64,000 nt of DNA, taken from positions 5,797 through 69,796 of the forward strand of contig CAKPOA010000005.1 in NCBI GenBank assembly GCA_934169575.1. Reading direction: 5' to 3'. Of the stretch, positions 6,073 to 59,317 are shown one piece after another (within the stretch, counting starts at the first letter, position 1; each line of letters starts with the position of its first letter). The position numbers were made by a program, and so were the translations under genes. Under the pieces are notes generated by a model. That model worked only from the letters and a program-made list of their open reading frames with translations. It had not been told where the DNA came from and did no database searches. The DNA comes from an uncultured Clostridia bacterium (GTDB lineage: Bacteria > Bacillota > Clostridia > TANB77 > CAG-508).

Positions 6073-6142
6073 AAATAATCCTCCAATATTGTTTTGTTAA
6101 TATATTATGAATTTATTTTACTTTTGTGATTAGACATTACAA

Positions 6143-6340
6143 GTCAGCCTTAAAACGATTTAAACCTAAATATGGATATAGAATTGTTTTTGAAATACTG
6201 CGTAAGCGATCAAACGAGCAAAGCGAGTGCGATTGGAGCAATTTTGATTATATTAAATTTAAAATATGGAAATTGCGACTGCAAAGTATGAAAAAACAAT
6301 TCTATATACATATTTAGGTAATAAATTTAAAATAGCTGAC
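6143..6340 (+). repeat. Foldback element with conserved core, copy 1 of 4 (core 6195-6289)
   Basis: Core ...CTGCGTAAGCGATCAAACGAGCAAAGCGAGTGCGATTGGAGCAATTTT...GGAAATTGCGACTGCAAAGTAT is shared with 26253-26346, 36244-36338 and 45502-45595. The flanking arms (6165-6199 and 6285-6320) are complementary, and the ends are GTCAGC/GCTGAC. Confidence 0.85.
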
Positions 6341-6345
6341 ACTTT

Positions 6346-6789
6346 TTAGTAAATTTCTTTTGAAAGCAAAAATGCATCAGAATTTTTGTAATATTTTTTC
6401 CTTAATCCTACCTGCTTAAATCCATACTTTTTATACAAATTAATTGCAATAGTATTTATGGAAGAAACCTCCAAATTTATAGTTTTGCACTTACTTTTTT
6501 TAGCAATATTGATTAAATTTTCCAAAATAAAATTTGAAAATCCTTTACCTCTGTAGCATTTTTTTACAACAATATTATTAATTTCTGCAATATCTAAAAT
6601 GATTGAAATTCCAGCAAAACCAATAATTTCAGTATTTATTTTACACACACAATAGTAAGAACTTTCAGTTTCTAATTCATTTTTTAATATATTATAATTC
6701 CAAAAATCATCAAAATCTGTTTCTAAAATATCAGCTATTTGATTTAAATCGGAAGTTGTCATCTTTTCTATAATTAAATTATTTTCCAT
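6346..6789 (-). CDS. rimI: GNAT acetyltransferase, ribosomal-protein-alanine N-acetyltransferase-like
   Basis: 147-aa GNAT fold (VKKCYRGKGFSNFIL) located downstream of tsaE-tsaB in the canonical tsaE-tsaB-rimI order. Confidence 0.75.
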   Translation of the reverse strand: MENNLIIEKMTTSDLNQIADILETDFDDFWNYNILKNELETESSYYCVCKINTEIIGFAGISIILDIAEINNIVVKKCYRGKGFSNFILENLINIAKKSKCKTINLEVSSINTIAINLYKKYGFKQVGLRKKYYKNSDAFLLSKEIY

Positions 6790-10964: not shown

Positions 10965-12455
10965 TTAGTTATTTACTATATTTCTTGTTACAATAAAATT
11001 ATATAGTAATATTAATGCAATACCCCAAAACATTGTCATTCCAAATGTTACAAGTATTGACCATTTTGTAAAACAAAATATAATTGAAATAGCTAATGCA
11101 GGTATTACTTTTGCAATCATATTTAAATATTTTTTATTATATGATTTTTTATCATCATTTTCTGTTTTTAGTAAATTTATATTAAATACATAATTTAATC
11201 CTAGAGCAATAATTATTGCAACAATACTTTCTATAGATATTTGAACATTTGTATATCTTAATATTAATGAATAAACTGCTACTAAACCGATAAAGCATAT
11301 TGCTGATATAAATCCTTTTGATTTATATTTTATTATCATATATATTAATAAAATTCCAAATATAACTAATAAACTAATTATTACTTTATTTATAATATCA
11401 CTTGAAATATCTGTTGTTACATATTTGTTTTCATTTAATGTATAAGAAATTGGTAAAGCTCCATTGTCTAATAATATAGCAACTTTTGAAGCAGAGTTAA
11501 AATAATCAGATATTTTTGAATTATCTGTAGTTGCAGAATTCATTGTCAAATCAATTTTACCATCTTTCATTGGCTCATCAAAACTTGTTGATAATATTTT
11601 ACTTCCTGAAATCATAAGATCAATTTTACTTTGTTCTTTCTTGTTATCTTCACTTGAGCTTTCTTCATCACTTTTATTTGTTTCGTCTGTAGTATTTTCA
11701 TCTTCAGTTGTATTTGTATCTTCTGTAGTATTTTCATCTTCAGTTGTATTTGTATTTTCAGTTGTGTTTGTATTTTCTTCTGAAGATGTATCTTCACTAC
11801 TCTCTTTTAATGTTGCATATTTATTTGTACTTAAATCTTCTAATATTTTTGTTCCTTCTTTATTTAATTGTATTTCTAAGAAAACAACAGTACCATTTTT
11901 TGTTTGGTTATACATTACTTTTGCAGATTTCAAATGGCTATTGTCAATATATACTGTTCCATCATTTGAATCTTTAATTTGAAAATCTCCAACTTCTTTT
12001 ATATTACTAACTATATTATCGGCTTTCTCATCTTCAGGCACTTGAAGATAAACTTTTCCACTTTGCTTATCTACACTAATATTATACTCTTCAACACCTA
12101 ATCCTGCTAATCTTTTTTCAAATATTTTTTGAACTTTATCAAAATTCTCTTCATTCAATATATCATCACTATTAACTTTTTCCTCAGATTTTGTATATTT
12201 ATTGCTTTCAATTGTTGAATCATCAATAGAATCTGTATTACCAACAACATTGCCACTTTCATCTAAAACTTTTGTAGCATTACTTACATCAAATGTAATT
12301 TCTCTATATCCAGTTAAATCTTTACTTTTTGCATAATCTTTTACTACATTTTCCATTTTATTTAATTTTTGGTTATATATTCCTACAAAAGATATTAAAC
12401 ATATTGTAATTATTGCTAAAATTTTTGTAACTAATTTTAATTTTTTATATTTCAT
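10965..12455 (-). CDS. Membrane protein, SecD-like topology with an acidic Thr/Asn/Glu-rich insert
   Basis: N-terminal TM segment, a ~330-aa extracytoplasmic region including TNTTENTNTTEDENTTEDTNTTEDENTTDE, then 5 C-terminal TM segments. I did not find the canonical SecD LGLDLxGG motif. Confidence 0.35.
   Translation of the reverse strand: MKYKKLKLVTKILAIITICLISFVGIYNQKLNKMENVVKDYAKSKDLTGYREITFDVSNATKVLDESGNVVGNTDSIDDSTIESNKYTKSEEKVNSDDILNEENFDKVQKIFEKRLAGLGVEEYNISVDKQSGKVYLQVPEDEKADNIVSNIKEVGDFQIKDSNDGTVYIDNSHLKSAKVMYNQTKNGTVVFLEIQLNKEGTKILEDLSTNKYATLKESSEDTSSEENTNTTENTNTTEDENTTEDTNTTEDENTTDETNKSDEESSSEDNKKEQSKIDLMISGSKILSTSFDEPMKDGKIDLTMNSATTDNSKISDYFNSASKVAILLDNGALPISYTLNENKYVTTDISSDIINKVIISLLVIFGILLIYMIIKYKSKGFISAICFIGLVAVYSLILRYTNVQISIESIVAIIIALGLNYVFNINLLKTENDDKKSYNKKYLNMIAKVIPALAISIIFCFTKWSILVTFGMTMFWGIALILLYNFIVTRNIVNN
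11687..11790. repeat. In-frame 36-nt tandem duplication plus degenerate copies inside the SecD-like gene
   Basis: CTGTAGTATTTTCATCTTCAGTTGTATTTGTAT occurs at 11687-11719 and again at 11723-11755. Related GTTGT(A/G)TTTGTATTTTC units follow. Confidence 0.8.
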
Positions 12456-26067: not shown

Positions 26068-26193
26068 AAAATCAACCCTTTCTTTATTTTGATAGCTATA
26101 TTTTTATTTTATTCTCTAACATTAATATATTATCACACTGTGGAAATATTAACAAGTATTTTTCTGATTTTTATGAAAAAAAATTACTGGATA

Positions 26194-26404
26194 GTTACTA
26201 GCCAGCCTTTTTAAATTTATTTCCTGAATATGTGTATGAAACTATTTTTGAAATACTGCGTAAGCGACCAAACGAACGGAGTGAGTGCGATTGGAGCAAT
26301 TTTCATTTATTTATTTTTAATTATGGAAATTGCGACTGCAAAGTATGAAAAAATAATTTCATACACATATTCAGGAAATAAATCTCTTTGTAGCTGACCA
26401 GTAA
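26194..26404 (+). mobile_element. Foldback element copy 2 of 4 (core 26253-26346), MITE-like with flanking 9-bp direct repeat
   Basis: Same core as copy 1. The terminal inverted repeat is TTACTAGCCAGC / GCTGACCAGTAA. TACTGGATA occurs immediately outside both ends (26185-26193 and 26405-26413). Confidence 0.75.
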
Positions 26405-26451
26405 TACTGGATAATGGTTTATTTAAAATTAATTCAAAACATTATTCAGTA

Positions 26452-26484
26452 ACAAAAAATAAAGAGTTCAATTAAGAACCCTTT
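26452..26484 (-). terminator. Candidate terminator of the 265-aa orphan gene
   Basis: The minus strand reads AAAGGGTTC-TTAATT-GAACTCTTT followed by ATTTTTTGTT. Confidence 0.5.
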
Positions 26485-26497
26485 ATAAAATAAATGT

Positions 26498-30879: not shown

Positions 30880-31689
30880 TTATGCACTTTTTAATTCTAA
30901 TCTTAATTTATCAGCAATCATTGCAATAAATTCTGAGTTAGTTGGTTTACCTTTACTTGCAGAAATAGTATACCCAAAAATATTTTCCATTATAGCAGGT
31001 TCACCTCTTCCCCAAGCTACTTCTATCGCATGTCTAATCGCACGTTCAACTCTTGATGGTGTTGTTGTAAATCTTTGAGCAATTTGTGGGTATAAACATT
31101 TTGTTATTTGATTAATAACATCAATATCATTTACTACCATCATAATAGCCTCTCTTAAATATTGGTAACCTTTAATATGTGCTGGCACACCAACTTCATG
31201 AATCATATTTGTTACAAGAGCTTCTAGATTATCTTCATCTTTTCTATCATTACCTATTTCAATATATTTTCTATTACTTTCTCTAGCAGTAATAAAATTA
31301 TTTTTTGGTAATGGCTTGAAATTTTTGATTTCTCTAATCCTTTTTATTAAAAGCCCAATATCAAAAGGTTTAACCACATAATAATCTGCACCAAGTGCTA
31401 TAGATTTTTGTGTTATTTTGTCTTGACCAACAGCTGAAAGCATAATACAAATTGGTGTTTTTTCTAATTCATTTACTTTTTCTAATACTCCTAATCCATC
31501 TAAATGAGGCATAATAATGTCAATAATTGCCACATCAGGTGATAATTCCTTTATTTTTTCTACTGCTTCAATTCCATCTTTTGCAACTCCAATTATTTCC
31601 ATATCTTTTTCATTTCCAAGATATGTCGCAAGTGTTCTGCTAAATTCTTGATTGTCATCTGCAATTAATACTGTAATTTTCTCATTCAC
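30880..31689 (-). CDS. spo0A: Sporulation master regulator Spo0A
   Basis: REC domain (VLIADDN...DIIMPHLDG) plus the Spo0A-specific C-terminal domain ([19 protein letters not shown]...[15 protein letters not shown]). Confidence 0.95.
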
Positions 31690-31763: not shown

Positions 31764-31822
31764 TAGTTTTTGGAATTTTTTTCCATTTTTTATTGTTAGA
31801 TAATGTTTTATTTAAAATTAAC

Positions 31823-31890
31823 ATGAGGAAATAGTTGGAATATAAGCTTCTCATTACATCTCTTAGCTTATATTCCAACTATTTCCTTAT
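31823..31890. repeat. Long perfect palindromic hairpin between yigZ and spo0A
   Basis: GGAAATAGTTGGAATATAAGCT (31827-31848) and AGCTTATATTCCAACTATTTCC (31865-31886) form a 22-bp perfect stem extendable to about 26 bp, with a 16-nt loop. Confidence 0.8.
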
Positions 31891-31912
31891 AAAAATTAAT
31901 TCAAACCATTTT

Positions 31913-36203: not shown

Positions 36204-36381
36204 AATGTAATATCTTTCATGAAATTAGTATTATACTTTTTTAATATTGCGTAAGCGATCAAACGAGCATAGCGAGTGCGATTGGAGCAATTTTCATTTT
36301 ATTAATTTTTAATATGGAAATTGCGACTGCAAAATATTAAAAAAGTATAATACTAATTTTATAATAAAAACATATTACATT
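36204..36381 (+). repeat. Foldback element copy 3 of 4 (core 36244-36338)
   Basis: Same core. The clamp is a 27-bp perfect stem, AAATTAGTATTATACTTTTTTAATATT (36222-36248) against 36333-36359. A 10-bp outer stem pairs 36204-36213 with 36372-36381, which overlaps the argS stop codon. Confidence 0.85.
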
Positions 36382-45447: not shown

Positions 45448-45471
45448 AACTTACTCCTTGTATATTTTTTC

Positions 45472-45625
45472 TTATATAGCTAATATTATATTATTTTATG
45501 AATACCGCGTAAGCGACCAAACGAACGAAGTGAGTGCGATTGGAGCAATTTTCATTATATTAATTTTTAATAAGAAAATTGCGACTGCAAGGTATGAAAA
45601 AAATAATATAATATTAGCTATATAA
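45472..45625 (+). repeat. Foldback element copy 4 of 4 (core 45502-45595)
   Basis: Same core. The 26-bp perfect clamp is TTATATAGCTAATATTATATTATTTT (45472-45497) against 45600-45625, and the core-closing helix is ATACC/GGTAT. The left end lies only 24 nt from the feoA ATG. Confidence 0.85.
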
Positions 45626-45690
45626 AAAGATTTTTATGATAATTAATTATATTCATATAAATAAAAAAAATGACAGAGAAAAATTCCCTA

Positions 45691-48620: not shown

Positions 48621-48697
48621 TGGTAGCGATGGTGGGACTTGAACCTACGACCTGCCGGGTATGAACCGGATGCTCTAGCCAGCTGAGCTACATCGCC
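48621..48697 (-). tRNA. tRNA with CAT anticodon (elongator Met-like; Ile2/lysidine not excluded)
   Basis: The reverse complement GGCGATGTAGCTCAGCTGGCTAGAGCATCCGGTTCATACCCGGCAGGTCGTAGGTTCAAGTCCCACCATCGCTACCA folds as a cloverleaf with an encoded CCA. One A-C mismatch in the T stem. Confidence 0.85.
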
Positions 48698-58964: not shown

Positions 58965-59317
58965 AATAAAAAAAGAGTAAATCTGTAAGCCGGGTTCTGT
59001 CATTTAAATTAGTCATTTATCTAGGACATATATCACTATATGCCTCAAGCCACGCATTTAAGAAGTGCCGAGCAAGCATATCTTCTCATTTAGGTGTTGC
59101 TCCAGATGGGGTTTACATTGACCCAGTATGTCACCATACTAGCGGTAAGCTCTTACCTCACCTTTTCACCCTTACCACTTTTGTGGCGGTTATTTTCTGT
59201 TGCACTTTCCTTAAGGTCACCCTCACTAGACGTTATCTAGCATCATCGCTCTATGGAGCCCAGACTTTCCTCTCGTAATTCCTTTCGAAATTTACCAGCG
59301 ACTAATCAATTTACTCT
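58965..59317 (-). ncRNA. rnpB: RNase P RNA
   Basis: The minus strand contains GAGGAAAGTCTGGGCTCC, ACAGAAAATAACCGCC, GGTAAGGGTGAAAAGGTGAGGTAAGAGCTTACC and ACAGAACCCGGCTTA. P1 pairs AGAGTAAAT with ATTTACTCT. The region is locally GC-rich. Confidence 0.85.

Follow-up and report, generated by a model that had tools for sequence, protein, structure and literature searches.

A probable MITE-like mobile palindrome with a conserved folded core in uncultured low-GC gut Clostridia

The spacer upstream of murE in an uncultured low-GC gut clostridium contains a repeat, copy 2, that we interpret as probably a non-autonomous, MITE-like palindromic mobile element with a conserved folded core. The element occupies about positions 26194-26405 of the window, the whole 64-kb stretch of DNA analysed here, and consists of 13-nt inverted ends, a long AT-rich stem and an apical 85-nt three-way junction on the + strand. 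In this layout P1 runs into the junction, P2 forms a hairpin with tandem G.A pairs and P3 a covarying stem with a free loop. We propose that the termini are recognised by a transposase provided in trans, whose staggered cuts would leave 8-10 bp duplications. Copy 2 would have inserted into one tip of a similar but older palindrome of 48 nt, at a neutral site with a terminator on one side and the murE promoter on the other. After insertion, copies lose their termini, as copies 3 and 4 have done, and undergo hairpin-associated internal deletions such as those of 87 nt (murE) and 128 nt (argS) in other strains. Decay by deletion can be read directly from strain alleles, whereas mobilisation in trans by a putative transposase is what the sequences suggest.

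Bacteria often carry small palindromic repeats, most of which attract little notice. The present family inverts their usual pattern, as its ends and arms turn over and its apical junction is near-invariant across human, rabbit, marmot and shrew gut hosts. The junction is a candidate, open to testing, for a structured module of RNA (or single-stranded DNA) so far undescribed in these abundant uncultured gut bacteria, and the family offers a case for how mobile repeats spread functional RNA modules. Its copies also break metagenome assemblies and cause strain-level deletions beside essential genes.

Copy 2 carries inverted ends and lies between two copies of a short direct repeat

The original prediction described a foldback element with a 10/12 inverted match between its ends and a 9-bp repeat directly outside them, and all of these sequences are present where it placed them (Table 1). 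TTACTAGCCAGC at 26195-26206 faces GCTGACCAGTAA at 26393-26404 with 10 of 12 positions matching. On the minus strand both mismatches turn into G.U pairs, and the match becomes 11 of 13 once G26194 and T26405 are counted. The flanking 9-mer TACTGGATA occurs three times in the window against 0.40 expected, a count that no shuffle attained, and two of the three occurrences flank copy 2. The right one adjoins the element end directly and the left one is parted from TTACTAG by G26194. Since the elements of relatives start with GTTACTAG, copy 2 is best delimited as 26194-26405 with ends GTTACTAGCCAGC ... GCTGACCAGTAAT; the same left end reads GTTACTAGTCAGCC in the related loci L005, L022, L044 and L060. 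The predicted target-site duplication is thus real as a repeat, and judged by these boundaries it is probably 8 bp (ACTGGATA) rather than 9 bp long. Between the ends, a 35-nt inverted repeat encloses about 100 nt, and the 210-nt stretch folds far better than shuffled sequences (z = -9 and -12 for the + and minus strands, respectively). Copy 2 displays what is expected of a MITE: terminal inverted repeats, duplications outside the ends, near-identical copies elsewhere, and a small, noncoding body.

The window holds four family copies in one orientation, with model matches at 6171-6312, 26229-26369, 36221-36360 and 45478-45619, and the 19-mer GTGCGATTGGAGCAATTTT is identical in all four. Copy 1 begins with ATTACAAGTCAGCC at 6136-6149 and has AGCTGAC at 6334-6340; as first described, its ends are homologous to those of copy 2 and no flanking duplication accompanies them.

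Table 1. Coordinates of the family copies and of the parts of copy 2 in the window
Feature	Position	Strand	Remarks
Copy 1	6136-6352	+	copy 2's subfamily; homologous ends, degenerate right end, no duplication
Left flanking direct repeat TACTGGATA	26185-26193	+	likelier true duplication ACTGGATA, 26186-26193
Left terminal inverted repeat GTTACTAGCCAGC	26194-26206	+	L022 homology stops here
P1 outer, 5' arm of long stem	26215-26249	+	35 nt, 97% complementary to 26349-26383
P1-inner 5' strand ATACT	26253-26257	+	pairs with AGTAT 26342-26346
Conserved core, three-way junction	26258-26344	+	exactly the 87 nt absent from the core-less allele
P2	26268-26294	+	CCAA 26268-26271 pairs with TTGG 26291-26294
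P2 inner hairpin CGAAC-GGA-GTGAG	26273-26285	+	tandem G.A
P3	26296-26333	+	GCAATTT 26296-26302 pairs with AAATTGC 26327-26333; loop variable
P1 outer, 3' arm of long stem	26349-26383	+	pairs with 26215-26249
Right terminal inverted repeat GCTGACCAGTAA(T)	26393-26405	+	L060 homology stops at 26404
Right flanking direct repeat TACTGGATA	26405-26413	+	
Small palindrome X	26405-26452	.	TACTGGATAATGG - 21 nt - ACATTATTCAGTAA; absent from L156, L157
Intrinsic terminator of 265-aa gene	26459-26486	-	
Copy 3	36219-36362	+	short form, 30-nt arms, no outer termini
Copy 4	45469-45628	+	short form, 38-nt arms

Copy 2 is nested in the tip of an older palindrome. Palindrome X spans 48 nt, with arms TACTGGATAATGG ... 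ACATTATTCAGTAA that are complementary at 12 of 14 positions, and copy 2 sits inside its left tip. Together with copy 2, X occupies part of the interval from the 265-aa gene's terminator to the murE promoter region. The repeated 9-mer TACTGGATA is the tip of X, not anonymous target DNA. Before insertion X would have read TTACTGGATAATGG ... CAGTAA, and GAAAAAAAATTACTGGATAATGGTTTATT, which is X without the element and with a single ACTGGATA, is the predicted sequence of the empty site. The ends of X (TTACTGG/TTACTGA) resemble the element ends (TTACTAG). X probably derives from an element of this same kind, as its stripped relic, with copy 2 as a nested insertion, and since TTACTGG resembles the element tip, part of the TACTGGATA repeat could be end-related rather than target-derived. 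At 3712-3923 of L044, a complete GTTACTAG...CTAGTAAC element occupies exactly the apex of another hairpin, the arms of which are like those of copy 2, a hairpin-in-hairpin nesting that hints at a preference for insertion into palindromes.

Near-identical copies in unrelated flanks and target duplications argue for mobility

In two related loci, L022 and L060, identity to copy 2 is 96% and is limited to the element. Their flanks are unrelated to the murE spacer, and homology ends at window positions 26193/4 and 26404, the proposed element ends. L044 and L005 are 84-86% identical to copy 2. The flanks of L022 and L060 both read TTTATAAA beside G-TTACTAG ... CTAGTAA-C, which would constitute an 8-bp duplication if the two loci are the two sides of one insertion; the corresponding empty site is predicted to read ATGATGTTTTATAAAAAAATACAAGC.

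Flanking duplications recur in the family. Perfect ones abut the inverted-repeat ends in L017 (TATAGTTAAG, 10/10), L120 (GTTATATTT, 9/9) and L047 (TTTCTATT, 8/8), and L013, L053 and L115 have duplications matching at 7 of 8 positions. Against a null in which the left and right flanks of different copies were paired, duplications of at least 8 bp were found at three copies with crude boundaries (0.29 expected) and at 4 of 20 copies with motif-defined ends (0.42 expected). Most copies carry no recognisable duplication, and lengths vary from 8 to 10 bp even inside one subfamily. Mobility was to be given up, according to the original prediction, if no other copy showed a flanking duplication; L017, L120 and L047 show perfect ones. 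Insertions at separate loci, such as those of L017, L041 and L120, have arms in common, which indicates that the arms travel with the core.

Orthologous murE spacers from related species lack the element. In L156 and L157, where the 265-aa neighbour protein is 82% and 67% identical, respectively, the spacer measures 153-157 nt and contains no element, no model hit and no TACTGGATA. Such spacers accord with the expected element-free state and carry no pre-existing pair of TACTGGATA copies. The single TACTGGATA that was predicted did not appear: no empty site with one TACTGGATA or one 8-mer was found, L156 and L157 being diverged and also without X, and all same-species contigs carrying the arms.

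In agreement with the earlier statement that the window encodes no transposase, Pfam returned no transposase, integrase or reverse transcriptase among window ORFs of at least 110 aa; five window ORFs had no Pfam hit of any kind. No transposase with matching ends was found beside the approximately 100 relatives, in about 0.8 Mb of related loci or in phage and plasmid collections, and the related loci contained no distant pairs of termini. The suggested search for a larger element with the same termini and an ORF accordingly came back empty from the window and the related loci. MITE-like mobility as first put forward is thus supported by 96%-identical copies elsewhere, by duplications in the family and by element-free murE spacers, and comes without a transposase partner from these searches.

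One insertion sequence was encountered, in a related strain at the place of copy 1. In L150 (1-1700, Hadza sample), which encodes an AhpC identical to that of the window, an upstream IS with a DDE_Tnp_1_4 transposase (448 aa) occupies the place of the window's copy 1 and an acetyltransferase gene. Its inverted repeats are at least 20 nt long (CAGTAATAACGAATATAAAA), with the ends cut off by the contig. As a partner of the element this IS was rejected, since its inverted repeat differs and its polarity is opposite.

The core is conserved as a strand-specific three-way junction

We tested the fold of the core with RNAalifold and explicit pair counting on 60 non-redundant copies from gut metagenomes. 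The strands of the 85-nt three-way junction are invariant or nearly so in these copies, which come from many hosts, and GCGAUUGGAGC is invariant within the core. The fold contains 36 pairs, 27 of which show two-sided changes. Paired cells amount to 94.8%, compared with 75.9% in shuffles and 29-43% when partners are slid, and the covariation score is 0.52 compared with 0.18 in shuffles. P1 contains an asymmetric internal loop, and the five pairs of P1-inner each show two-sided changes in 7-18 copies with at most one unpaired cell per pair. In P2, the inner pair (51-67) occurs as GC in 25 copies and as AU in 20, 25 cells show C-to-U opposite an invariant G, and a T insertion on the 5' side accompanies an A insertion on the 3' side, which supports a stem with tandem G.A pairs. 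The pairs of P3 alternate (UA 33 / CG 27 and CG 38 / UA 19), and the pair linking GCGU with ACAA changes from U-A through C-G to U.G.

The types of non-canonical pairs reveal a strand preference. Read on the + strand, the core and P1-inner contain 47 G.U and 2 A.C cells, compared with 17 G.U and 16 A.C in the outer stem, indicating that the core is constrained as a + single strand and that the outer stem is a plain palindrome. The lengths of P2 and P3 vary between copies by non-multiples of three, and for this reason the 55-aa ORF across copy 2 (26230-26397) was discarded as a gene. The earlier observation that the core is better conserved than the termini holds at both scales, with one 19-mer shared by the four window copies, junction strands (near-)invariant in 60 copies and termini that differ between subfamilies.

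From these patterns we infer purifying selection on the core as a single-stranded fold, most likely of + strand RNA; covariation reads the same for an RNA fold and a single-stranded DNA fold. The core would either serve the element's own spread or maintenance or act on neighbouring transcripts. Tentatively, the junction might represent a new functional RNA class, a protein-binding scaffold or small ribozyme, that is spread by a MITE-like vehicle and kept while the transposon parts decay. A sharper version, which we likewise put forward as a conjecture we would not bet on, holds that the fold is needed for the element's mobilisation, so that the essential cis-element would be the central folded single strand and not the ends.

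Strong core covariation and strand-specific wobble pairs are also what non-mobile, paralogous small structured RNA genes or cis-regulatory RNAs would display, and the repeats and ends could then be chance features of AT-rich spacers or extensions of a basal stem. Duplications are indeed missing from most copies, and outer termini are missing from the short-form copies 3 and 4. We nevertheless consider such stationary genes unlikely. They would not account for 96%-identical copies whose flanks are unrelated and whose homology breaks off at the ends, nor for perfect 8-10 bp duplications above expectation by both counts (3 vs 0.29 and 4 vs 0.42), and the orthologous spacers of related species lack the element. 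Each genome has its own core subtypes, the elements point either way with respect to the adjacent genes, and the core is deleted at two of the four window loci in other strains, which makes individual copies dispensable.

Within copy 2, the core TTGCGA and the 3'-arm AATAAT at 26330-26357 (+), 16-17 nt apart, resemble an outward-facing promoter. The number of promoter-like sites found by a scan of the element is not above that of shuffles, and the element gave no significant promoter or terminator signal.

The family is a discrete set found in low-GC uncultured Clostridia

Searches with the core 19-mer recovered real relatives solely from MAGs of low-GC uncultured Clostridia. A gapped-pattern search returned at least 120 metagenomic stretches, sampled from the guts of human, rabbit, marmot and shrew. 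Among the listed matches (gut metagenomes and Clostridia MAGs), about 100 relatives are non-redundant. By covariance model the family is a discrete set in which every match scores at least 80 bits, with nothing weaker down to E = 0.01. At gathering score, Rfam 15 identified in the window only a class A RNase P RNA (58970-59317, minus strand, 290 bits) and a single tRNA (48624-48697, minus strand). At E up to 10 the element itself gave only spurious matches to miRNA hairpins, and four other members gave nothing. No match pointing to a phage or plasmid origin was present in IMG/VR (pattern search) or in phage and plasmid collections (blastn), and a full-text literature search with a core 11-mer together with a keyword search yielded unrelated primers and papers only.

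Elements range from 140 to 250 nt across the family. On the + strand, subfamily-specific outer arms are followed by a semi-conserved inner arm (ATAATATATTAnTTTTGAAATACC), the core and the complementary arm. The core in turn is ordered as GCGTA-AGCGAYCAAACG, the P2 hairpin, AGTGCGATTGGAGC, the P3 stem with its free loop, and GCGACACACAA. The termini of different subfamilies are related (GTTACTAGTCAGCC, GTTACAATTCACAG, GTTACAGTTCAGAC and TTCAAGTTTCGAC), and the family terminal inverted repeat comprises 13 nt with a consensus of roughly GTTACAAGTYCAG, the termini being also written GTTACNAGTYCAG. Core subtypes are genome-specific, for example GACTGCAA in the host species.

In some members the P3 loop has grown to about 100 nt and others are truncated in P3 by unrelated sequence (L021 3375-3597; L024 9036-9258; L038 4385-4606; L051; L124). 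L060, L005/L078 and L151/L152 end inside the element, where the repeat breaks short-read assemblies, and L022 is chimeric, switching to another copy's arm within the conserved core.

Strain alleles lacking the core point to internal deletion

At the murE locus, L132, L134, L135, L136 and L140 (several samples) have a spacer of 344 nt instead of 430 nt. Arms, termini and both TACTGGATA copies are intact in this allele and exactly 26258-26344 (87 nt) is missing; the junction reads GAAATACT|ATGAAAAAA, with 1-nt ambiguity and linked SNPs. At the argS locus (copy 3), L141 and L143 lack 128 nt, 36236-36363, comprising the core and most of both arms. This deletion runs between 5-nt direct repeats TTATA and leaves a stub of one arm. 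A third core-less remnant, with a joint that is not clean, is found at 945-1000 of L080. Core-less hairpins with family-like arms are absent from the window and number two in the approximately 1 Mb examined (the L132 allele and L080). Given the differing junctions and the rarity of core-less hairpins, we read these alleles as hairpin-associated deletions and not as excision of a mobile core. On this reading the strain-level polymorphisms seen are internal deletions rather than clean excisions, and with the core deleted at two of the four window loci in other strains, a single copy is dispensable. No polymorphism was seen at copies 1 and 4 among the contigs returned. The flank retained in the short allele of copy 3 is complementary to the missing arm, and we had entertained the idea that arms are copied from the target at insertion; it was dropped, since arms are shared across loci and the allele fits a deletion between 5-nt repeats.

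The core-less murE allele, which lacks exactly the core with 1-nt junction ambiguity and keeps both arms intact, can also be read as the excision product or pre-insertion state of a separate HUH/IS200-IS605-like single-strand mini-transposon, the 87-nt core, that homes to the apical loops of hairpins and excises precisely. The core has a hairpin about 10 nt from its right end, and ATAC-like bases close the flank on its left, a geometry that we take to be reminiscent of the IS608 family, and the L044 element sits at the apex of another hairpin. Several observations make a mobile core of this kind very unlikely. Core-less hairpins with family-like arms are too rare (2 in about 1 Mb, none in the window), every core sits in homologous inner arms, and P2 does not resemble P3. 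Instead of being a fixed 4-5-mer, the left flank covaries as a helix with the 3' end of the core. The copy 3 allele has lost most of both arms as well, between TTATA repeats in the manner of a slipped deletion, the joint of the L080 remnant is not clean, and the orientation of the elements is opposite to that of lagging-strand-template targeting.

Palindrome-associated transposable elements (PATEs) derived from IS200/IS605 are likewise tiny, noncoding, hairpin-defined single-strand elements. PATEs have no inverted ends or duplication and a fixed 4-5-nt target; the present family has inverted ends and duplications, no fixed target tetranucleotide and dissimilar hairpins. The triplet preceding the core varies (ACC, ACT, GCC, TCT and GAC, among others), in covariation with the 3' strand. 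The core-only murE allele resembles, and is compatible with, seamless excision of the PATE type, and the other two losses are not clean.

The family resembles known small repeats with the constraint moved from the ends to the centre

The closest known systems appear to be bcr1-type, Correia, ERIC and RUP repeats, as compared by their general features. In those repeats the constrained part is the ends, and in the present family it is the centre.

bcr1 of the Bacillus cereus group is a noncoding, multicopy intergenic repeat of about 150 nt with MITE-like ends, short target duplications and no known transposase of its own, and a conserved single-strand fold with compensatory changes has been predicted for it. 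Both bcr1 and the present family are noncoding intergenic repeats of Firmicutes with MITE-like ends, a conserved fold and no known transposase of their own. No sequence similarity was detected, and the present family has no Rfam hit. It further differs from bcr1 in its discrete apical three-way junction, which is kept across host species while arms and termini turn over, and in its duplication of 8-10 bp.

Correia/NEMIS elements of Neisseria and ERIC/IRU elements of enterobacteria are 100-160-nt palindromic repeats with inverted ends that are found near gene ends. Within transcripts they form long hairpins, which can influence adjacent mRNAs. Their termini are conserved and their interior is less constrained, and the target duplication is TA (Correia) or not clear. 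The present family shares their palindromic structure and inverted ends, and departs from them in its conserved core, variable arms and junction module; to our knowledge, neither Correia/NEMIS nor ERIC/IRU has a conserved junction module. RUP, BOX and SPRITE of Streptococcus pneumoniae and EFAR of Enterococcus are small, multicopy, hairpin-forming repeats thought to be mobilised in trans, with RUP tied to an IS630-type transposase and a TA duplication. They are likewise hairpin repeats of low-GC Gram-positives, with sequences and sizes that differ from those of the present family.

An integron attC site (RYYYAAC ... GTTRRRY) does not describe the element either, as its ends GTTACTAG ... CCAGTAA are in the wrong order and fail the R/Y pattern, and the copies are scattered among housekeeping genes instead of forming a cassette array.

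Elements favour gene 3' ends and lie among housekeeping genes

G+C content in the window is about 27%, and the minus strand encodes nearly all genes. They have housekeeping functions, including a mur/ftsW cluster, aminoacyl-tRNA synthetases, spo0A, gatAB and clpB, and spo0A at 30880-31689 places the host among the endospore-lineage Firmicutes. Across the family, neighbouring genes are both antisense to the element + strand at 30 copies, convergent at 28, both sense at 20 and divergent at 9, an arrangement indicating a preference for the 3' ends of genes and no link to a single direction of transcription. The + strand coincides with the locally C-rich strand at 45 loci compared with 19, a moderate bias (about 70% of relatives). 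In the window, where GC skew is very strong (about -0.27), all four copies have the structured strand on the C-rich strand and antisense to most genes.

The intergenic location and the excess of convergent (28) over divergent (9) gaps recall extragenic palindromes, similar to REP/BIME or to terminators, that the host maintains and that recombination would spread instead of transposition, and unrelated REP-like palindromes flank some copies in other hosts. That the family itself consists of such palindromes is highly improbable. REP/BIME units measure 20-40 nt and combine a GTAG-type head with a RAYT; the present elements are 140-250 nt long, have no GTAG-type motif and possess target duplications, and no Y1 transposase appears among the Pfam hits of the window. 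Nor is there a GC-rich stem with a T-run, the real terminator being beside the element and not inside it. A MITE-like mobile repeat remains the reading we prefer.

Several other palindromes and repeats were noted in passing. A 29-nt REP-like palindrome of another host, TGAACTTTGGGGACGTTCCTTAAAGTTCA, forms tandem and inverted pairs and sometimes brackets the hairpin element, mimicking long terminal repeats (L025 3613-4020 and 4929-5030; L106 6982-7090; L098, L109, L116, L122); it was excluded as an element terminus, being an independent palindrome. Another palindrome, CTGATTGGGGACGGTTCTTTTT-loop-AAAAAGAACCGTCCCCAATCAG, recurs at several loci between runs of A and T and has the look of a terminator acting in both directions (L033 690-746; L059 4470-4534; L071 6509-6568; L127 1-53; L043 844-900). 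Between the UPF0029 gene and spo0A, the window contains a 33-nt inverted repeat at 31816-31897, 88% complementary with a 16-nt loop, that is unrelated to the element family. Finally, five to six tandem 18-nt units at 11685-11795 lie inside the ORF 10965-12455 (496 aa, no Pfam hit), which suggests a repetitive, possibly surface or low-complexity protein.
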